From: Patescibacteria group bacterium
GTDB lineage: Bacteria > Patescibacteriota > Patescibacteriia > UBA1558 > GWA2-36-10
Direction of reading: 5' to 3'
DNA length: 64,000 nt
Assembly (NCBI GenBank): GCA_041650755.1
Contig: JBAZKN010000001.1
Span: forward strand, 70,796 to 134,795
Shown here: in pieces, positions 9,972 through 63,945 of the stretch
How positions within the stretch are numbered: the stretch's first letter is position 1
How the letters are laid out: each line of letters begins with the position of its first letter
The notes under the pieces: generated by a model
Databases searched by the model: none
Told to the model about the DNA's origin: nothing
Seen by the model: the letters and a program-made list of their open reading frames with translations, nothing else
Translations under genes and position numbers: made by a program

Positions 9972-9980
9972 AAAAGCCAT

Positions 9981-10053
9981 TATGCCGGTTACGCTACTAG
10001 CTCCTAATCGTTCAAGCGTCCATATACAAACGATTATTCACAGCCTCATTTTG
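9981..10053 (+). repeat. Structured repeat copy B
   Basis: tatgccggttacgctactagctcct / AATCGTT caagcgtccatataca AACGATT / attcacagcctcatttt. Confidence 0.7.
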
Positions 10054-10133
10054 ATCCTCGATATATTGAAATGAACTTTAACAAAATACACCTCCCATTT
10101 AAGAGGCGTAACCGTTAAAGTCATTTTGACTAT

Positions 10134-10203
10134 TATGCCGGTTACGCTACTAGCTCCTGACCACCCAAGCGTCCATATACAGGTGGTCATTCATAGCCTC
10201 ATT
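10134..10203 (+). repeat. Structured repeat copy C
   Basis: tatgccggttacgctactagctcc / TGACCACC caagcgtccatataca GGTGGTCA / ttcatagcctcatta. Confidence 0.7.
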
Positions 10204-10269
10204 AGTGTATTATATTGTTAACAATTAGCAATATATCATATTACCCATATTTTGTCAATAGGGGATAAA

Positions 10270-30627: not shown

Positions 30628-31063
30628 GGCTTAAGCTGACCCTGTAAGCCGAATTCTGTCTAGGATGATCATCTATCTAGGCCTAACATTGCTGTTAAGC
30701 TCAAGCGGTTTACCCGCCATACACCATATGGTGCATGACCTACTTAACCTTTCACCAAGTAGAGTTTGCCTCTTTTAGCTTGTCACCAAGCTAACGTGTC
30801 TAGTCATTACCAGACAATTTCACCCTTATCCACCTAGGCCGAAGCTTTGGCGGAAGGAATATTTTCTGTTGTACTTGTCCTGATCAATGGGTCACCCCTT
30901 TGATCGGTTGGCGTTACCAACTACTCTTTTATCGGTGTTCGGACTTTCCTCCCCGAACCACTCGCTTTGCTCGGGTATCAGGGCAGAACTCCTGAAATTC
31001 CCTTACGTGGTTAGCCATTTACCAGAGCAAGGCGAGTGGTTCGCGGCGATCATCTGGGCCAAT
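30628..31063 (-). ncRNA. rnpB: RNase P RNA (bacterial type A)
   Basis: Minus-strand sequence contains GGAAAGTCCGAACACC (P4), AGGGTGAAATTGTCTGGTAATGAC (P10/11 region), ACAGAATTCGGCTTACAGG (3' P4 strand), and P1 pairing of ggcttaa with ttaagcc. Confidence 0.8.
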
Positions 31064-47626: not shown

Positions 47627-47700
47627 TGCCGGATCGTCTAATGGTAGGACGTCAGGTTCTGGCCCTGATAATCTAGGTTCGATTCCTAGTCCGGCAGCCA
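47627..47700 (+). tRNA. tRNA-Gln (anticodon CTG)
   Basis: Acceptor tgccgga/tccggca with U1-A72; anticodon loop ttCTGgc; T-arm ctagg ttcgatt cctag; encoded CCA. Confidence 0.85.
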
Positions 47701-49766: not shown

Positions 49767-51842
49767 ATGCCCAAAAAAATCATGGCTAGCAAGAAAAGCC
49801 AAAGCAAAAAATTGACAGCAAAAAACAAGGTCGCTAAACTCAATAATTATTATGGCAACACCACTTTGGCTATTGTTTTCTTTTTATTTGTCATAGCTAT
49901 TGGCGTTTTAATATTAACTAAATTACAAAGGCCATATCAGCGTCCACCAATTATCACTTTGCCCAACAATAATTTGGCCAATACTAATACCCAAGTAGCA
50001 GCCTTTTCTTCAGCAGAAGAATTTTTGAGCTATTTAGAGACAGGCAAAGATCTAGCCAGTAATATCAGTATGCCTGGCATGGGTATAGCCAAAAATAGTG
50101 CTCAAGGCAGGACAGAAGCTATGGATGTCTTGAGTGCTCCTAGCGCGGCTCCGGAAAGAGTATCCACCACCAATGTTCAAGTAGCTGGAGTTGATGAGCC
50201 GGATATAGTTAAAACTGATGGCCAGACAATATATTTTTCCCAAGAGCCCGGTTATCGGACATATTATGATTATGAAATCATGCCAATGGTGCGGGTAGGC
50301 AGCAGCATTGTGCCTCCGCAATATCAAACCGGCAAAACATCTCTTATCAAAGCTTGGCCCACTAAAGACGTAGAATTTTTGACCAAAATAGAAAAATCTG
50401 GAAACTTGCTTTTGGCTGACAATATATTAGCTATTTTTACTGGCCAAGAAATAGTGGCCTATGATGTCAGCGACCGGACTAAACCCAATAAAACCTGGAC
50501 AGCAAAATTTGATGATAATAATTATTTAGTATCAGCTAGATTGTATCAAGATAAGATATACCTGGTCAGCCAAACTTATTTAAATGATTTTAAACCGTGT
50601 CCCTTGAAGACCCTGTCAATCGACGATAAAAATATAGAAATTGCTTGTCAAGAAATTTATCACCCGGTCAGCCCCACCCAGGTGGACACTGCCTTTACTG
50701 CTATGACTATTGATATGAAATCTGGCGAAATCAACCATAAAATATCTTTTGTCGGTATGGCCAGCCAATCAGTGGTCTATATGTCAACCGGCAATTTATT
50801 CGTGACTTATCAGCAGCCCATTGATATGTTTAGCTTTTTGACTGAATTTTTCCGGGAAAAGATGGCAGATTTAGTGCCGGCTGAACTATTGGCCCGCTTA
50901 GATAAGATCAATGGCTATGATATCGGTCAAAATGCCAAGTTGACTGAATTTTATGATGTTTTCGGTAAATGGCAGAATTCTTTAGATAAAGATACTGCTT
51001 TGAAATTGGAAAATGACATGAACAACCGATTAGACGATTATTTAAAAATCAATCAAAGAAAATTATTAAATACCGGCATAGTCAAAATCGGTATAGATGA
51101 TTTTAAAATAAAAGCTACCGGCACAGTGCCTGGTACGCCCTTAAATCAATTCTCTTTGGATGAGTACCAGGATAATTTGCGCATTGCCACGACCCTGGGC
51201 AATGTGTGGCTGGGATTTACCAATAGCACTAATACTGCCAACGATGTCTATGTTTTGGATAAAAATTTGAAAATTACCGGCTCCATCCAAGACCTAGGTC
51301 TAGGAGAGCGCATTTATGCTGCTCGCTTTTTGAGCGACAAGGGATACTTGGTGACTTTTAGGCAGACTGATCCTTTTTATGTCTTAAATTTAGCTGATCC
51401 CAAAAATCCAAAATTAGCTGGTGAGCTGAAAATACCAGGCTATTCCTCTTATTTGCATCAGCTGGCCAACAACAGGATTTTGGGCATTGGCCAGGAAGGT
51501 TCTAAAGTTAAGTTGTCTTATTTTGACGTATCTGATCCAAACAAGCCAAAAGAAATCAGCAAGTACCTATTGGATGAATATTGGAGCGAAGTATCAAACA
51601 ATCACCACGCCTTTTTACAGGATGCTAAGCACCAAATATTCTTCTTGCCGGCTAGTCAAGGCGGTTATGTATTTTCTTATGATGATGACGCCTTGTCTTT
51701 AGAAAAAGCCATCAGTTTGTCCGCAGTTAAAAGAGCTATTTATTTAAATGATTATTTGTATGTTTTGTCATCTTCAGCTATCAAGGTCTATGATGAAAAC
51801 GATTGGCAAGAGGTAAAAAATCTAGATTTAGATACAGACTAA
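49767..51842 (+). CDS. Membrane-anchored secreted beta-propeller domain protein (Beta_propel-like)
   Basis: N-terminal TM; conserved C-terminal block YAARFLSDKGYLVTFRQTDPFYVLNLADPKNPKLAGELKIPGYSSYLH. Confidence 0.6.
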   Translation: MPKKIMASKKSQSKKLTAKNKVAKLNNYYGNTTLAIVFFLFVIAIGVLILTKLQRPYQRPPIITLPNNNLANTNTQVAAFSSAEEFLSYLETGKDLASNISMPGMGIAKNSAQGRTEAMDVLSAPSAAPERVSTTNVQVAGVDEPDIVKTDGQTIYFSQEPGYRTYYDYEIMPMVRVGSSIVPPQYQTGKTSLIKAWPTKDVEFLTKIEKSGNLLLADNILAIFTGQEIVAYDVSDRTKPNKTWTAKFDDNNYLVSARLYQDKIYLVSQTYLNDFKPCPLKTLSIDDKNIEIACQEIYHPVSPTQVDTAFTAMTIDMKSGEINHKISFVGMASQSVVYMSTGNLFVTYQQPIDMFSFLTEFFREKMADLVPAELLARLDKINGYDIGQNAKLTEFYDVFGKWQNSLDKDTALKLENDMNNRLDDYLKINQRKLLNTGIVKIGIDDFKIKATGTVPGTPLNQFSLDEYQDNLRIATTLGNVWLGFTNSTNTANDVYVLDKNLKITGSIQDLGLGERIYAARFLSDKGYLVTFRQTDPFYVLNLADPKNPKLAGELKIPGYSSYLHQLANNRILGIGQEGSKVKLSYFDVSDPNKPKEISKYLLDEYWSEVSNNHHAFLQDAKHQIFFLPASQGGYVFSYDDDALSLEKAISLSAVKRAIYLNDYLYVLSSSAIKVYDENDWQEVKNLDLDTD

Positions 51843-52746: not shown

Positions 52747-54429
52747 ATGAATAAATATCAGTCCAGTTCTCATAAGGTTATGTCTGCCCAGAGAGTTAAG
52801 ATTACTTTTGTGGCCATTATTATTTTGGCTATTTTGGGTTGCTTGGTGGCCCTGCCAAAACCAGGCTTTATACCCAATAATAATTGGTTTAGGCAGTTTA
52901 AAATACACTTGGGCCTTGATTTGCAGGGCGGCACCCATCTGGTTTATCAAGCAGATGTATCACAAGTGCCGGATAATGAGCGTCGCGATAGAGTGGAAGC
53001 CTTGCGGGACGTGATTGAACGCCGGGTAAACGCCTATGGCGTGTCTGAACCGGTTGTCCAGACCAATTATAGCGGCGATAATTATCGTATTATTGTTGAG
53101 CTGGCCGGGGTGACCGATGTCAATCAAGCTATCAGTATTATCGACAAGACTCCTTTGCTCGAATTCAAGACACAAGGCCAGGCTCCTATTGATAATAATG
53201 ACCAGAATGCCGTTCGTGATAAAGCCAACGACATATTACAGCGAGTACTGAAGGGCGAAGACTTTGCTGAGCTAGCCAAGCAATATAGTGAGGATCCAGT
53301 TTCAGCTGCTCAAGGCGGAGATTTGCCTTGGGTGACCAAAGGCAAATTTGTCCCAGAATTTGATACAGCCATTTTTGATCAGCTAAAGACAGGCGAGGTA
53401 GATAAACAATTAGTTGAATCTCAATTTGGCTATCATATTATCAAAAAAATAGAGGAGAGAACCAATGACAGTGGCGAAAAGGAAGTCCATGCCGCCCATA
53501 TTTTGATAAAAAAAATTGACGCTGATATGGTCTGGGAGGATACTTCTTTGAGTGGCCGCAATATCAAAAAAGCCGAGTTAAGCTTTGATCAGAATACTCA
53601 AGAGCCCTTGGTCTTAATTAACTTTGATGACCAGGGTAAAGAAATTTTTGCTGATCTGACCACTGCCAACGTCGGTAAGCCAATCGCCATATTTTTGGAT
53701 GGAGTTTTACGCTCTGAGCCGGTTGTGCAAGAAGCTATTACTGACGGAAGTGCCCAGATTTCCGGAAAATTCACCATCAAAGAAGCCAAACAGCTCGTCA
53801 AAGACTTGAATTTAGGCGCCCTGCCTGTGCCAATAAAACTAGTGACTCAACAAACAGTTGGCCCTACTTTGGGGCAAGTGTCGCTAGACAAAAGTTTGAT
53901 AGCTGGCATTATTGGTTTTTTGGCAGCTGCTTTATTTATGCTCATTTTGTATCGTTTGCCGGGTATTTTAGCAGTGGTGGCCTTGGGGCTATATACTATT
54001 TTGAGTTTGAGTATTTTTGAAATTATACCAGTAACCATGACCATGGCCGGCATTGCTGGTTTTATTCTATCTATCGGCATGGCTGTGGATGCCAATATTT
54101 TAATATTTGAAAGAACCAAAGAAGAGTTATATAAAGGCAAAACTTTATGGACTGCCATTGAAGAAGGATTCAGCAGAGCTTGGCCATCAATTCGCGATTC
54201 AAATGTTTCCTCAATTATTACTTGTATAATTTTGGCTTGGTTTGGCACTTCGATTATCAGAGGTTTTGCTATTACCTTGGGGATAGGTATCTTGGTGTCC
54301 ATGTTTTCCGCCATTACCGTGACCCGCACCTTCTTGTACTTAGTTGTTAACAAAAAATTAGAAAATAAATTGAGTTGGTTTGGCGTACATATTACTAAAA
54401 CCACCGAAGAACAACAAAACCATGTATAG
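52747..54429 (+). CDS. secD: Protein translocase subunit SecD with a parvulin-like (PpiC-type PPIase) insertion
   Basis: LGLDLQGGTHLVYQAD and the SecD TM bundle; inserted segment (about 53180-53530) EDFAELAKQYSEDPVSAAQGGDLPWVTKGKFVPEFDTAIF...SQFGYHIIKKIEER...VHAAHILIKK. Confidence 0.85.
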   Translation: MNKYQSSSHKVMSAQRVKITFVAIIILAILGCLVALPKPGFIPNNNWFRQFKIHLGLDLQGGTHLVYQADVSQVPDNERRDRVEALRDVIERRVNAYGVSEPVVQTNYSGDNYRIIVELAGVTDVNQAISIIDKTPLLEFKTQGQAPIDNNDQNAVRDKANDILQRVLKGEDFAELAKQYSEDPVSAAQGGDLPWVTKGKFVPEFDTAIFDQLKTGEVDKQLVESQFGYHIIKKIEERTNDSGEKEVHAAHILIKKIDADMVWEDTSLSGRNIKKAELSFDQNTQEPLVLINFDDQGKEIFADLTTANVGKPIAIFLDGVLRSEPVVQEAITDGSAQISGKFTIKEAKQLVKDLNLGALPVPIKLVTQQTVGPTLGQVSLDKSLIAGIIGFLAAALFMLILYRLPGILAVVALGLYTILSLSIFEIIPVTMTMAGIAGFILSIGMAVDANILIFERTKEELYKGKTLWTAIEEGFSRAWPSIRDSNVSSIITCIILAWFGTSIIRGFAITLGIGILVSMFSAITVTRTFLYLVVNKKLENKLSWFGVHITKTTEEQQNHV

Positions 54430-55330
54430 AATTATTCAAAAAAAAGCGCTTTGGTTTTCCATTTCAGCTATTGTCTGCGGAGCATCTCTGTTGGCTTTAT
54501 TGATCTGGGGACTAAGGCCTGGCATTGATTTTACCGGCGGTAGCTTGCTGGAAGTTTCTTATTCTCAAGCTAGACCCGGCTTCCAGGCAGTAGAGGAAGC
54601 GCTTAAAGATGTTCAGCTCAAGGACCTCAAAATCCAGCCCAGCGGCGATAGAGACTATATCTTAAGATTTGAAAGTATTGATGAGACACAGCACCAAACT
54701 ATTTTATCCAAGCTGCAGGATATTAAGCTGGATAACATCAATGATAATAAGCTGACCGAAAATCGCTTTGAATCTATTGGGCCCACTATCGGCGTAGAGC
54801 TAAAAAATAAAGCTATCCAATCCATTATTGTGGTTTTGATCTGTATTTTACTTTATATTGCTTATGCTTTTAGAAAAGTTTCCAAACCAGTAGAATCCTG
54901 GAAATATGGCGTGGCAGCCATCATCGCTTTGCTGCACGACGTGATTGTGGTGTCTGGTGTATTTGCGATTCTCGGCTACTTTGCCGGGATAGAGATAGAT
55001 AGCTTATTTGTGACTGCTTTATTGACTGTCTTAGGTTTTTCTGTGCACGATACCATAGTAACCTTTGATCGTATTAGGGAAAATTTGTTCAGAAGTCGTA
55101 ATTATGATGATTTCGAGGACATTATCAACTCCAGTGTCAACGAAACAATCATTAGGTCTTTAAATACCTCGTTGACCACGCTTTTAGCTTTGCTGGCAAT
55201 TTATATTTTTGGCGGGGAAAGCACCAGATACTTTGTCTTGGCTCTAATTATTGGTATTATTACCGGTACCTACTCATCTATCTTTATTGCTTCACCAATT
55301 GTTTTATTGTTTAATAATAAAAATAAATAA
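54422..55330 (+). CDS. secF: Protein translocase subunit SecF
   Basis: SecF TM topology; LDFTGGSLLEVSY; start MYRIIQKK overlaps the secD stop by 8 nt. Confidence 0.85.
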   Translation: MYRIIQKKALWFSISAIVCGASLLALLIWGLRPGIDFTGGSLLEVSYSQARPGFQAVEEALKDVQLKDLKIQPSGDRDYILRFESIDETQHQTILSKLQDIKLDNINDNKLTENRFESIGPTIGVELKNKAIQSIIVVLICILLYIAYAFRKVSKPVESWKYGVAAIIALLHDVIVVSGVFAILGYFAGIEIDSLFVTALLTVLGFSVHDTIVTFDRIRENLFRSRNYDDFEDIINSSVNETIIRSLNTSLTTLLALLAIYIFGGESTRYFVLALIIGIITGTYSSIFIASPIVLLFNNKNK

Positions 55331-55560: not shown

Positions 55561-56667
55561 ATGGAATCTATATTGGATCAAGTGATTACTGCCAGACATT
55601 TGTCAAATTTGGCAAATTTTAATCCCCATCAAACCCTAGATAACATCTTGGCGGCTTTGTCAGACCGCGAACGCGAGATTATTAAGTTGCGTCATGGTTT
55701 ATCTGGTTATGAAAAAAAGACCTTGGAGGAAATTGGCCAAAAATACAAAGTCACTCGTGAAAGGGTAAGGCAGATTGAGAATACTGCTCTCAAGAAAATC
55801 ACCAAAAATTTTGATCAAACCTATCTTAAGGAAATAGAAGATATTGCCAATGGCATTTTATCTGAACATGGCGGCATGATGTCAGAAACCAATTTAATCA
55901 AAGAATTATTGACCGTGCCCGGTAATACGCCGGAGAATCAGGCAGCTATTCGCTTTATCTTAAATCAATTACTGAAAAACCGTTTTCACTTCATCAAAGA
56001 ATCCAAGGATTACCATAATTTTTGGAAAACTCCAGAGTCTTCCCAAGGTTTTTTTGAAGAAACCATTGATCATATTGCTAAATTGATCCATGGCCATGGT
56101 ACGCCATTGCCCTTAGAACATCTTTTATCAAAAATTCAACAGCATGATTTTTATAAAGATAATGATGATTTGACTGATCGAGTGATTGTCAACTTTATTT
56201 ACATCACCAAAAAACTAAAGGCCAACCCTTACGATGAGTGGGGTTTGGCAGAATGGTCAGCCATCAGTCCGCGTCGCATGAACGACAAAATTTATCTGGT
56301 CTTGAAAAAGGAAAATCGCCCCATGCACTTTACGGAAATTGCCGATATGATCAATAAAATGCAGTTTGATCAGCGTCAAGCCTATCCGGCCACCATCCAT
56401 AATGAATTGATTTTAGATGATAAGTACGTTTTGGTGGGCCGTGGTATTTATGCCTTATCAGAATGGGGCTATAAGCCGGGCGTGGTCAGCGACGTGATCG
56501 CTGAAATTTTACAAGCCAATCCACAAGGCTTAAGTAAAAAGGAGATTATTGCCGAAGTATTAAAAAAGCGCTTAATCAAAGAAACCACTATTACTTTAGC
56601 CCTGATGAACAAAGATCGTTTTATCCGCAATGAACGAGGTCGCTACACTTTGAAAACTAATGCTTAA
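55561..56667 (+). CDS. Sigma-70 region-4-like HTH protein fused to tandem HARE-HTH domains
   Basis: LSDREREIIKLRHGL...TLEEIGQKYKVTRERVRQIENTALKKI (sigma r4); later PYDEWGLAEWS and LVGRGIYALSEWGY (HARE-HTH hallmark). Confidence 0.65.
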   Translation: MESILDQVITARHLSNLANFNPHQTLDNILAALSDREREIIKLRHGLSGYEKKTLEEIGQKYKVTRERVRQIENTALKKITKNFDQTYLKEIEDIANGILSEHGGMMSETNLIKELLTVPGNTPENQAAIRFILNQLLKNRFHFIKESKDYHNFWKTPESSQGFFEETIDHIAKLIHGHGTPLPLEHLLSKIQQHDFYKDNDDLTDRVIVNFIYITKKLKANPYDEWGLAEWSAISPRRMNDKIYLVLKKENRPMHFTEIADMINKMQFDQRQAYPATIHNELILDDKYVLVGRGIYALSEWGYKPGVVSDVIAEILQANPQGLSKKEIIAEVLKKRLIKETTITLALMNKDRFIRNERGRYTLKTNA

Positions 56668-56786: not shown

Positions 56787-58289
56787 ATGAATTTTAGCGT
56801 TGAGGTCAATAATTTTATCAATACACTACTGACTATAGGTTCTTTGCCACCGGATATAGCTTTTATTTATTTAATGACCCACTATATCTGGCCAATTTAT
56901 GTTGTCATGATTTTATGGATGGCTTATGATGTTTGGCTGACGTCTCTGCAGAATAAGTGGTTTGCTACTCACAAGTTCATCCTTTTGGCTATTGATATAC
57001 CTAAAGATACCGAACAGACACCAAAGGCTATTGAGCAACTATTTGCCACCCTATCAGGCGCTCATACGCCCATCAGTACTCGCGATAAATATGCTGGCAT
57101 GTTTCAGCTGTCATTTTCTTTTGAAATTGTCAGTATAGACGGCTATATTCAATTTTTGATTCGCACTCCCAGCCACTGGCGGGATCTGGTAGAGAGTTCC
57201 ATTTATTCACAGTATCCCGATGCAGAGATCACTGAAGTGGAGGATTATACCACTGATTTGCCGCGTAAATTTCCCGACGACAAATACAATATGTGGGGTG
57301 CGGAAATAGTTTTGGTAAATAAAGATGTTTATCCCATAAAAACTTATATTGATTTTGAAGATGCGGTTTCCGGAGAATTCAAAGATCCAATGGCCTCAAT
57401 TTTGGAAACTATGAGTAAAATACAGGCCGGTGAACAGGTCTGGGTGCAGCTGATAGTCAGACCGACTGACCACCTCTGGACTAATCGTAGCAAAGCTGAA
57501 GCCGACAAATTGGCTGGTAAAAAGGTTAAAGCACAGAAAGGTTTATTGGAAAGACTGTTTGGCCCTCTGTTTGGTTTATTTTTCCTGTCTGGCGGCGACT
57601 CTATTTTTTGGCCAACTGGCGCTGAATCCAAATCAGAAAAAAAGGCCAATGAACCAATTAGCTTGATGCTGTATATGACCCCGGGAGAGAGAATAAAGAT
57701 TGAAGCAGTAGAAAAAAAGGCATCCAAAATAGGCTTTCAATGCAAAATTCGCTTGGTCTATCTATCGCCCAAAGAGCAGTATAATCCCGGCAGGGTAGTT
57801 TCTTCGGTGTTTGGTTCGCTGAAACAGTTTAGCACCATGCATTTGAATTCTTTTAAGCCCGATGCTAAAACCAAGACCAAAATAGAGTGGATTATGGTCA
57901 AAACCAGGACCAATTGGCGCCGTACAAACCTCATTAGAGCCTATAAGAGCCGCAGCGGCATCATCGGACATGGCTATTTTATATTAAATACCGAAGAACT
58001 AGCTACTTTGTGGCACTTTCCTAGCAAATTTATTCGCACGCCTTTATTGCAAAAAACAGAGTCCAAAAAAGCCGAACCGCCAGCTTCTTTGCCTATTATG
58101 TCTGGAATTTTTGATACCCAGACCGAGCAGGCAAGCGCTGAATTACGCCAGCAGCTAAAAACAGTGCCGGAATTCAATATACCCCTGGACAATACTTATT
58201 TTGAGGAGCGCTTTGCCAAAGACAAAAGCCAGGTCAAGCCAAGACATACAAAAAACGAGCCACCGACTAATCTACCCGTTACCAAATAA
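56787..58289 (+). CDS. Membrane-anchored N-domain protein, paralogue of the N-terminal half of 42898..45354
   Basis: 2 TM at the N-terminus; FSFEIVSIDGYIQFLIRTPSHWRDLVESSIYSQYPDAEITEVEDY aligns with FSLDIVSVDGFINFYAAVPPKFKDFFIAQLQAVYPKIYVEEVVDY. Confidence 0.65.
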   Translation: MNFSVEVNNFINTLLTIGSLPPDIAFIYLMTHYIWPIYVVMILWMAYDVWLTSLQNKWFATHKFILLAIDIPKDTEQTPKAIEQLFATLSGAHTPISTRDKYAGMFQLSFSFEIVSIDGYIQFLIRTPSHWRDLVESSIYSQYPDAEITEVEDYTTDLPRKFPDDKYNMWGAEIVLVNKDVYPIKTYIDFEDAVSGEFKDPMASILETMSKIQAGEQVWVQLIVRPTDHLWTNRSKAEADKLAGKKVKAQKGLLERLFGPLFGLFFLSGGDSIFWPTGAESKSEKKANEPISLMLYMTPGERIKIEAVEKKASKIGFQCKIRLVYLSPKEQYNPGRVVSSVFGSLKQFSTMHLNSFKPDAKTKTKIEWIMVKTRTNWRRTNLIRAYKSRSGIIGHGYFILNTEELATLWHFPSKFIRTPLLQKTESKKAEPPASLPIMSGIFDTQTEQASAELRQQLKTVPEFNIPLDNTYFEERFAKDKSQVKPRHTKNEPPTNLPVTK

Positions 58290-63856: not shown

Positions 63857-63945
63857 ATGGGCGTAGCTCAGTCAGGATCCCGGCCGGAAAGAGCGCTGCA
63901 TTATCGGTGCAGAGGTCGCAGGTTCAAATCCTGCCGCCCATACCA
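63857..63945 (+). tRNA. Atypical 89-nt tRNA with a 13-nt palindromic D-loop insertion and nominal anticodon ATC (Asp codon GAU); isotype uncertain
   Basis: Acceptor atgggcg/cgcccat; U8; D-stem gctc/gagc enclosing agtcagg-atcccggccggaa-a; anticodon arm ctgca ttATCgg tgcag; T-arm gcagg ttcaaat cctgc; encoded CCA. Confidence 0.55.

Follow-up and report, generated by a model that had tools for sequence, protein, structure and literature searches.

Does the SecD protein encoded in this stretch of Patescibacteria DNA carry a folding enzyme within its extracytoplasmic region, and if so, is the enzyme domain complete? The window, meaning the whole stretch of DNA that was analyzed, comprises 64,000 nucleotides from a Patescibacteria group bacterium of the candidate-phyla-radiation lineage (GCA_041650755.1, contig JBAZKN010000001.1). 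In the answer that we consider likely, the locus encodes a functional SecD with a complete, circularly permuted parvulin in the connector that links P1 base and head, most likely serving as a tethered peptidyl-prolyl isomerase (PPIase) or holdase.

An intact SecD gene followed by secF

The features of the locus, all on the plus strand, are as follows:

52747..54429, +, SecD coding sequence; a single uninterrupted open reading frame of 560 aa plus stop that contains the insert
52996..53172, +, SecD_1st, covering the N-terminal portion of the P1 base up to and including the 'PLLEFKT' strand (aa 84-142); Pfam E 7.7e-17, with query residues 50-142 aligned to 30-117 of Thermus thermophilus SecDF
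53173..53193, +, N-side connector (aa 143-149), disordered in the AF2 model
53194..53463, +, parvulin core from helix alpha1 to strand beta4 (aa 150-239), containing S181, D183, L193, F201, F205, S225 and H230
53464..53478, +, hairpin loop from beta4 to the relocated beta1 (aa 240-244, 'NDSGE'), flanked by AF2 strands 228-239 and 245-255
53479..53511, +, relocated strand beta1' (aa 245-255, 'KEVHAAHILIK') with the invariant H251, defined by strand transplant, conservation and a pLDDT of about 98
53512..53544, +, C-side connector to the P1 head (aa 256-266), in which W263 is nearly invariant (0.96)
53545..53829, +, P1 head subdomain (aa 267-361, Pfam match from aa 263); SecDF_P1_head E 9.7e-30, aligned to T. 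thermophilus SecDF from residue 159 on
53839..54366, +, SecD C-terminal transmembrane bundle (about aa 365-540), including D448; SecD_SecF_C and MMPL matches
54422..55330, +, SecF, 302 aa; SecD_SecF_C E 5.9e-57, its start overlapping the SecD stop by 8 nt

Judged by its sequence, the open reading frame at 52747-54429 is a bona fide SecD. The TIGR01129 secD model was matched over all of its positions (1-397 of 397) at 399.7 bits (cut-off 244.4), and a Pfam search returned SecD_1st, a Rotamase match, SecDF_P1_head and SecD_SecF_C in this order. The protein has the general build of SecD, with a first transmembrane helix (TM1), a large extracytoplasmic P1 region made of base and head, and a C-terminal transmembrane bundle; the AF2 model places helices at residues 14-35 and 376-545, and SecDF structures were the top Foldseek matches. 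The proton-path aspartate is present as D448, which aligns to Thermus D340 (3aqp alignment) and is invariant in 68 sequences. SecF is encoded adjacent to SecD, as a separate gene.

An extra segment between P1 base and P1 head

The extra segment comprises residues 143-266 (window positions 53173-53544); it follows the P1-base strand 'LLEFKT' and precedes the first strand of the P1 head. The two flanking blocks (query 50-142 and 267-532) correspond to residues 30-117 and 159-424 of T. thermophilus SecDF; between them the Thermus protein has 41 aa, whereas the window SecD has 124 aa. This amounts to a net gain of about 83 aa, and not the 115 or so given by a sequence-only reading of this DNA, although the insertion that it described is real. 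In insert-free SecDs the same gap is filled by a low-complexity linker of 9-70 aa. The comparison that this earlier reading had proposed thus came out in its favor, as in both Thermus SecDF and insert-free SecDs the segment does not align to ordinary P1-head sequence.

The poorly conserved, length-variable stretch at the N-side covers residues 143-157 and extends into the start of the first helix, with indels seen in the alignment and a mean top-residue frequency of 0.36, compared to 0.72 for the parvulin domain. On the C-side, homologous 'W..T.LSG' junctions occur in SecDs with either one or two inserted parvulins. These alignments put the insertion point in the variable, extracytoplasmic connector that joins P1 base to P1 head.

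The extra segment contains a parvulin domain

Both rotamase profiles recognized the segment by a wide margin: Rotamase_3 (PF13616) matched SecD residues 150-237 with an E-value of 3.9e-26 (92.3 bits, gathering threshold 22.5) and Rotamase (PF00639) matched residues 149-235 with an E-value of 5.3e-23 (82.3 bits, gathering threshold 21.7). The parvulin-like PPIase segment that had been read from the letters at 53180-53530 is thereby borne out; these coordinates correspond to residues 145-261, with the translation exactly as quoted. The quoted text itself was correct, but it did not include the first helix of the parvulin domain, DQNAVRDKANDILQRVLKG. The segment had further been likened to the 'catalytic half' of a parvulin, and while the rotamase match holds, it covers the whole domain minus strand beta1 rather than a half. 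A reading as an incomplete half-domain was rejected.

The predicted three-dimensional fold of the insert is that of a parvulin. When the segment was modeled alone, AF2 returned a pLDDT of 89.8 and a pTM of 0.81. The model of full-length SecD reached a pTM of only 0.51 and does not define the placement of the parvulin relative to head, base or SecYEG. The domain is flanked by the SecD P1 base and head, and is hence internal to SecD and not an independent polypeptide; no Pfam match to SurA_N, SurA_N_3 or a related chaperone domain was obtained in the SecD protein at E ≤ 0.1. The SecD-embedded parvulin is not a member of the PrsA, SurA or PpiD families, though its putative function would be like that of those foldases.

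Distribution of parvulin-bearing SecDs

PF00639 and PF13616 occurred together with SecD domains in all 120 best database homologues, which belong to Patescibacteria wherever a name is given. Some insert-bearing loci are labeled 'Gammaproteobacteria', 'Binatia' or 'Lysobacteraceae'; in pairwise BLAST of the C-terminal halves, a noisy comparison with short HSPs, these group with SecDs of Magasanikbacteria and Parcubacteria. SecDs of other lineages carry two parvulins at the same insertion site, and in each of 12 such sequences the beta4 histidine is gone from one of the two units (unit 1). Since this unit is kept, the site tolerates units lacking an active-site histidine. Many of the best representative-library matches are proteins of about 650-690 aa; these were considered as double-insert SecDs and rejected, as Pfam described them as multi-parvulin proteins devoid of SecD domains. 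A related permuted parvulin is also found in a separate membrane-anchored protein (P0222). No second parvulin open reading frame is present within the 64-kb window.

The parvulin is circularly permuted

In the canonical parvulin order, beta1 is followed by three helices, beta2, helix 4, beta3 and beta4. The SecD parvulin departs from this order, with beta1 located after beta4, and the native-order profile matches start at helix alpha1 (position 31 of 116 in Rotamase_3 and 11 of 97 in Rotamase). When residues 243-261 were moved ahead of the core, the Rotamase_3 score rose to 107.8 bits, from 97.2 for the insert in its native order and 94.7 when the strand was omitted, and the Rotamase score increased from about 86 to 93.7 bits; the matches then covered profile positions 14-115 of Rotamase_3 and 1-96 of the 97 positions of Rotamase. 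The true strand contributed 13.1 bits in this transplant, against 0.2 to 1.3 bits for shuffled or unrelated 19-mers and 5.8 bits for the reversed strand. In the AF2 model of the excised segment, beta4 (86-97) and beta1' (103-113) form a hairpin. That beta1' takes the canonical beta1 place between beta4 and beta2 is deduced from profile scores, alignment lengths and DSSP strings, not from observed hydrogen bonds.

The sequence-only reading had left two options for 'VHAAHILIKK', a permutation or a partial second repeat, and these turn out to answer different questions. The domain as it stands today is better described as a circular permutant, while the partial repeat probably describes, as far as colinearity can tell, the origin of the beta1' strand. 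From alpha1 of its parvulin domain P1 through beta1 of P2 ('EVHARHILLKP'), E. coli SurA is colinear with the insert, as are many tandem-parvulin proteins, and exactly this order would be expected if part of a tandem array had been copied with its boundaries shifted. The same colinearity also speaks for a more radical proposal, in which 'VHAAHILIKK' is a leftover of a truncated second repeat that serves as a linker only, leaving an incomplete, three-stranded domain that is not a true permutant. We regard this as very improbable. H251 is invariant and the strand is as well conserved as the core; its N-terminal placement adds 13 bits to the rotamase profile match; AF2 pairs it with beta4 at a pLDDT of about 98, even for the module alone; P0222 has the same unit, from alpha1 to beta4 plus beta1', outside SecD; and a sheet deprived of its central beta1 would expose the core and lose one active-site histidine. 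The possibility that the inserted region is an artefact, whether from a chimeric assembly or a frameshift, or merely divergent P1-head sequence, is practically negligible. The open reading frame is unbroken, and an identical SecD protein is present in NCBI (MFA5126484.1), ENA and Logan data, each assembled independently, on which basis an assembly chimera was rejected. The architecture is common to more than 120 homologous clusters, and the failure to align to P1-head sequence, together with Pfam rotamase E-values of about 1e-26, led us to reject an ordinary P1-head identity. Literature searches on both the permuted parvulin and the SecD-parvulin architecture found no published description of either. 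The domain is thus apparently an undescribed natural circular permutation of the parvulin fold.

Active-site residues and the question of catalysis

Alignment to Par10 and Pin1 paired H251 with Pin1 H59, S181 with S111, D183 with C113, S225 with T152, and H230 with H157. The Pin1-type active-site positions (H59, C113 or D, T152 or S, and H157) are accordingly occupied by H251, D183, S225 and H230. Across 68 homologues (54-89% identity), S181, D183, H230 and H251 do not vary, and the position of S225 is serine in 81%. The insert and the P1 head are equally conserved, with a mean top-residue frequency of 0.72 in each. F201, which aligns to Pin1 M130, is mostly phenylalanine among the homologues. 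The motif 'SQFGYHIIK' matches that of Par10, an active parvulin.

Conserved residues are nevertheless no proof of catalysis, since near-intact parvulins can be inactive: the SurA P1 and PpiD parvulin domains look nearly intact yet are dispensable or, as in PpiD, inactive, and the chaperone function of both SurA and PpiD is independent of PPIase activity. The inserted parvulin could similarly be catalytically silent and provide an extra polypeptide-binding or holdase surface, or a docking site, on P1, in the manner of SurA P1 or the PpiD parvulin. The retention of unit 1 in all 12 double-insert SecDs despite the loss of its beta4 histidine is in line with such a role, as are the dispensability of PPIase activity for SurA and PpiD chaperoning and the phenylalanine at the Pin1 M130 position. 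Unit 1, however, also indicates that active-site residues drift fast where catalytic selection is relaxed, while in the single-insert family the four residues are invariant, and the serine at S225 is largely kept; the Par10-like motif of the window SecD points the same way. We therefore consider a silent domain unlikely, and the SecD parvulin is treated here as a putative enzyme.

Putative function of the SecD parvulin

The permuted module starts at helix alpha1 and ends with the normally N-terminal beta1, which is predicted to fold back onto beta4 as a hairpin and to bring in the second active-site histidine. With beta1 relocated after beta4, both ends of the module exit at the position of the normal beta1-alpha1 loop. 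In Pin1-type parvulins this loop borders the substrate cleft, and the cleft is therefore probably close to the SecD hinge. As a putative tethered, non-phospho-specific PPIase or holdase, the domain would meet unfolded secretory chains leaving SecYEG as they are captured by the mobile, proton-motive-force-driven P1 head, where it could isomerize prolyl bonds and help to prevent backsliding and aggregation. We infer that the parvulin acts on translocating substrates and moves together with the head. In this arrangement, the SecD parvulin would be a cis version of PrsA, PpiD-YfgM, SurA and the Mycoplasma Mdp dome, which act in trans. The suggestion, put forward when the sequence was first read, that such a foldase would link export and folding with no distinct PrsA or SurA is plausible as a prediction.

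A more far-reaching and quite unlikely scenario would make the SecD parvulin the principal or only extracytoplasmic prolyl isomerase of reduced-genome Patescibacteria and a mechanically coupled 'powered foldase', with the two-parvulin form as a later elaboration. Here, the short conserved connector would tie the parvulin to the swinging P1 head, each proton-driven stroke would present the emerging chain, and the foldase would be powered by head movement rather than passively co-localized. In the two-parvulin relatives, an active native-order parvulin would be nested inside a degenerate permuted one.

Recent work has placed folding catalysts at the exit of the Sec channel, namely PpiD-YfgM on SecYEG, SurA on the SecDF P1 head and the PrsA-like dome of Mycoplasma, but these contacts are transient or lineage-specific and difficult to pin down. 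A natural parvulin-SecD fusion constitutes independent evolutionary evidence, of the 'Rosetta-stone' type, for a shared substrate and a shared site of action of P1 region and parvulin. The fusion is conserved in many Patescibacteria, with the residues aligned to the active site invariant, and offers a compact, genetically defined system to probe the coupling of translocation and prolyl isomerization. The tethering of a folding enzyme to the secretion machine through a SecD insert is conserved and apparently undescribed.

Comparison with known systems

The window SecD shares TM1, P1 base, P1 head, C-terminal transmembrane bundle and the proton-path Asp with the SecDF proteins of T. thermophilus (PDB 3AQP, 5YHF) and Deinococcus (PDB 5XAM, 5XAN, 5XAP), with a sequence E-value of 5.5e-71 and a Foldseek E-value of 1e-24. 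In contrast to the 41-aa base-head connector of Thermus SecDF, the window SecD has the 124-aa segment with the parvulin, and SecD and SecF are separate genes. The soluble periplasmic PPIase of Bacteroides fragilis (PDB 8HM3, 8HM4; 427 residues) is not a SecD.

PrsA of Bacillus and Listeria (PDB 4WO7, 6VJ6, 1ZK6) has the native strand order and an N/C SurA-like chaperone domain, and is a dimeric lipoprotein outside the translocon, whereas the SecD insert is permuted, lacks the chaperone domain and is tethered through SecD itself. The best PDB sequence match of the insert was E. coli SurA (PDB 1M5Y, E 4e-19), a soluble protein with tandem native-order parvulins and an N/C chaperone core that delivers outer-membrane proteins in diderms. 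In AlphaFold models, the parvulin domains of SurA lie on the P1 head of SecDF (PMC9987972), and the SecD-parvulin fusion is a covalent counterpart of this proposed contact.

PpiD-YfgM binds SecYEG (PMC9643414), and the Mycoplasma PrsA-like parvulin proteins associate near-obligately with the Sec translocon, SecDF included (bioRxiv 10.1101/2025.04.25.650208; 10.1101/2024.09.05.611430). E. coli PpiD-YfgM (PDB 8ZHT) and the M. pneumoniae Mdp436/444/489 dome are membrane-anchored, parvulin-containing chaperones at the Sec channel exit, and the dome, in a genome-reduced, wall-less host, involves SecDF in its near-obligate association. Both are nonetheless separate polypeptides with chaperone domains, and neither is inserted in SecD.

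A parvulin segment in the base/head connector of SecD

The sequence-only reading had placed a parvulin-like segment inside SecD at window positions 53180-53530, which correspond to SecD residues 145-261; the text quoted there is identical to the translation.

52747-54429, + strand: uninterrupted SecD ORF, 560 aa
aa 84-142: SecD_1st (Pfam)
aa 143-266, window 53173-53544: extra segment of 124 residues by comparison with Thermus
aa 149-237: Rotamase_3/Rotamase (Pfam)
aa 263-361: SecDF_P1_head (Pfam)
aa 365-533: SecD_SecF_C (Pfam)
54422-55330: SecF, after SecD, with an 8-nt overlap with the SecD stop

On sequence grounds, the parvulin-bearing ORF is a genuine SecD: it scores 399.7 bits on NCBIfam TIGR01129 with the full model covered (cut-off 244.4), its Pfam domains follow the order Sec_GG, SecD_1st, Rotamase_3/Rotamase, SecDF_P1_head and SecD_SecF_C, and D448, which aligns with the proton-path aspartate D340 of Thermus SecDF, is invariant among homologues. 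The insert was recognized by both Rotamase_3 (E 3.9e-26) and Rotamase (E 5.3e-23). An identical protein is recorded in NCBI (MFA5126484.1, 'Patescibacteria group bacterium'), ENA and Logan assemblies, and an assembly artifact is therefore ruled out.

Alignment with T. thermophilus SecDF (PDB 3AQP) paired residues 50-142 with Thermus 30-117 and residues 267-532 with Thermus 159-424, leaving 124 residues between the flanking blocks compared with 41 in Thermus. The base-head gap was also measured in each of 80 SecD loci from GTDB species representatives (the best 80 matches listed, a non-random sample), and in 63 of these it spanned 9-140 aa with no parvulin signal, the short gaps being low-complexity linkers from 'LEF[KR]' to '...W/F..T.L[ST]G'. 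Since Thermus aligns on both sides and parvulin-free SecDs have a variable or short linker there, these alignments place the parvulin in the hypervariable connector that leaves the last base strand, 'PLLEFKT', and leads into the first strand of the head, and the segment is a true insertion. This site belongs to the extracytoplasmic side of the membrane and forms the hinge region between the base and head of P1.

Connector insertions of 89-139 aa were also present in the SecDs of L058:117-2036 (labelled Dehalococcoidia), L076:1072-2973 (Calditrichaceae) and L045:2812-4437 (Cyanobium), and Pfam gave no match within them. The SecD base/head connector seems to be prone to insertions in general.

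Permuted strand order and its origin

The profile matches begin late, at position 31 of 116 (Rotamase_3) and 11 of 97 (Rotamase), and strand beta1 is therefore absent from the N-terminal side of the insert. After beta4 ('FGYHIIKKIEER') there follow a five-residue turn and then 'KEVHAAHILIK', which is a textbook parvulin beta1 (hereafter beta1'). The fold was un-permuted in silico by placing aa 243-261 ahead of the parvulin core and rescoring on the Rotamase profiles, with control strands of equal length.

Profile scores of the parvulin segment by strand arrangement
Core without strand: Rotamase_3 94.7 bits, Rotamase 86.4 bits; coverage from 32/116 and 11/97
Native order: Rotamase_3 97.2 bits, Rotamase 85.7 bits; coverage from 32/116 and 11/97
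Strand at N-terminus: Rotamase_3 107.8 bits, Rotamase 93.7 bits; coverage 14-115/116 and 1-96/97

Gains with the controls were +1.3 and +0.9 bits for a shuffled strand, +0.2 to +0.6 bits for two P1-head strands, and +5.8 and +1.4 bits for the reversed strand. AlphaFold2 modelling of the excised 124-aa segment, using an alignment of 26 homologous segments, gave a pLDDT of 89.8 and a pTM of 0.81, with the element order alpha1, alpha2, alpha3, beta2, alpha4, beta3, beta4 (86-97) and beta1' (103-113) and a beta4-beta1' hairpin at pLDDT about 98. The full-length model (overall pTM 0.51) contained identical secondary-structure elements in the insert, whose closest structural match was PDB 8HM3/8HM4 (113 aligned residues). 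The parvulin sheet has the strand order 2-1-4-3; together with the profile scores and the model, this would put beta1' between beta4 and beta2.

The strand 'VHAAHILIKK' had been read as a sign of either circular permutation or a partial second repeat. Circular permutation describes the present fold well, as moving the strand N-terminally restores near-full profile coverage, and a partial second repeat accounts well for its origin. Insert residues 10-114 align colinearly with E. coli SurA 171-274, which comprises alpha1 to beta4 of parvulin domain P1, the linker and beta1 of P2; the shared strand reads '...EVHARHILLKP' in SurA and '...EVHAAHILIKK' in the insert. The top matches in a representative library of 1.8 billion proteins were multi-parvulin proteins, many alignments continuing through the relocated strand. 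Judged from these alignments, this order is exactly what would arise if a segment were excised from a tandem parvulin array at shifted boundaries (permutation by duplication), which is why the repeat explains the origin well.

A permuted unit also occurs in P0222, a non-SecD protein outside the window (456 aa, found only in Logan assemblies) with a single TM anchor. Its unit runs from alpha1 to beta4 and then 'EVRVSHILF', is 51% identical to the SecD insert and precedes a C-terminal domain that lacks annotation; a separate membrane-tethered protein therefore carries the permuted module as well.

Distribution among SecD proteins

All of the best 120 matches in a collection of 5.8 billion proteins (54-100% identity, about 550-600 aa) combined PF00639, PF13616 and SecD domains; those named were Komeilibacteria, Nomurabacteria, Parcubacteria and 'Patescibacteria group'. 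Among the best 80 GTDB matches, five loci carried one parvulin (named as Buchanan-, Kerfeld- and Moranbacteria) and 12 carried two units at the identical site, including Magasanik- and Peregrinibacteria and Parcubacteria, while the parvulin-free loci included Saccharibacteria, several Paceibacteria-type lineages, Gastranaerophilales, Cyanobacteria and Chloroflexi. Several two-unit loci bear the NCBI labels Gammaproteobacteria or Binatia; their SecDs group with those of Magasanikbacteria and Parcubacteria, and the labels look unreliable.

The double-insert SecD/SecDF proteins of Patescibacteria are those of L006, L007, L009-L013, L015, L017, L018, L024 and L028 (e.g. L009:2806-4872; L011:2875-5964). 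Unit 1 has lost its beta4 histidine in 12/12, and the histidines of the inter-unit strand and of unit 2 are each kept in 12/12. The histidine of the terminal strand survives in only 3/12 and is usually replaced by Arg. Such a pattern points to a degenerate permuted parvulin within which an active native-order one is nested.

Active site and conservation

The un-permuted insert was aligned with two reference sequences, Par10 of E. coli and the PPIase domain of human Pin1.

Active-site equivalences (by alignment to the reference sequences)
SecD H251: Pin1 H59, Par10 H8
SecD S181: Pin1 S111, Par10 –
SecD D183: Pin1 C113, Par10 C40
SecD S225: Pin1 T152, Par10 –
SecD H230: Pin1 H157, Par10 H84

In the same alignment L193, F201 and F205 of the hydrophobic pocket correspond to Pin1 L122, M130 and F134. 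PrsA- and Par14-type enzymes have Asp at the position equivalent to D183. Across 68 homologues (54-89% identity) F173, A177, S181, D183, G191, G228, H230, K233 and H251 are invariant, and conservation of the parvulin core and of beta1' equals that of the P1 head (mean top-residue frequency 0.72, 0.71 and 0.72, respectively). The N-side connector is unconserved (0.36) and variable in length; in the C-side connector W263 is nearly invariant. A Pin1-type basic phosphate-binding loop cannot exist in the insert, because the beta1-alpha1 loop is the splice point of the module into SecD, and the insert is therefore of the non-phospho-specific kind. Its substrate cleft probably adjoins the SecD hinge.

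Other features of the window

49767-51842, + strand: secreted Beta_propel (PF09826) protein, 691 aa, upstream of secD
55561-56667, + strand: 368-aa protein just 3' of secF, with Sigma-70 region 4 (aa 30-80) and HARE-HTH (aa 243-300)
56787-58289, + strand: membrane protein, 500 aa, without Pfam match, downstream of secD
9974-10057 and 10127-10210, - strand: two tandem c-di-GMP-II riboswitch aptamers
30629-31003, - strand: bacterial RNase P class A RNA, 190 bits
7281-7351, 47627-47697 and 63857-63942: tRNAs

The pairing of Sigma-70 region 4 and HARE-HTH in one protein is unusual. The aptamers score 64-65 bits, above the Rfam gathering threshold, and G+C is raised in the riboswitch region (0.52 at 8-10 kb). 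No other extracytoplasmic PPIase was found within the 64-kb window.

Proposed function and comparison with translocon-associated parvulins

Structures from Thermus and Deinococcus indicate that in SecDF the proton-motive force swings the P1 head; the head binds the preprotein as it emerges and draws it out of SecYEG. With a short conserved connector on its head side and a floppy one on its base side, a parvulin inserted between these two subdomains would be kept in reach of the emerging chain. In this ATP-free compartment it could speed prolyl isomerization and limit both backsliding and aggregation. A cis-tethered PPIase/holdase is the best-supported predicted function. The data above establish what the domain is, where it is inserted, its permuted strand order, how conserved it is and how widely it occurs, and from them we infer that it would be catalytic, act on translocating chains and move with the head.

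Sequences and automatic Pfam annotations of parvulin-bearing SecDs are already public. No description of a SecD-parvulin fusion, or of a natural parvulin circular permutation, was found in a full-text literature corpus that covers a minority of subscription journals. The fusion is no categorically new system, and the observation is a solid one, of use to work on translocation and folding. Studies of other bacteria have independently located parvulin chaperones at the translocon: SurA parvulin domains dock on the SecDF P1 head in AlphaFold models (PMC9987972), PpiD-YfgM binds SecYEG (PMC9643414), and the PrsA-like parvulin lipoproteins of genome-reduced Mycoplasma are in a near-obligate complex with the translocon and cross-link to SecD (10.1101/2025.04.25.650208; 10.1101/2024.09.05.611430). 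The SecD-parvulin fusion represents the covalent extreme of this trend.
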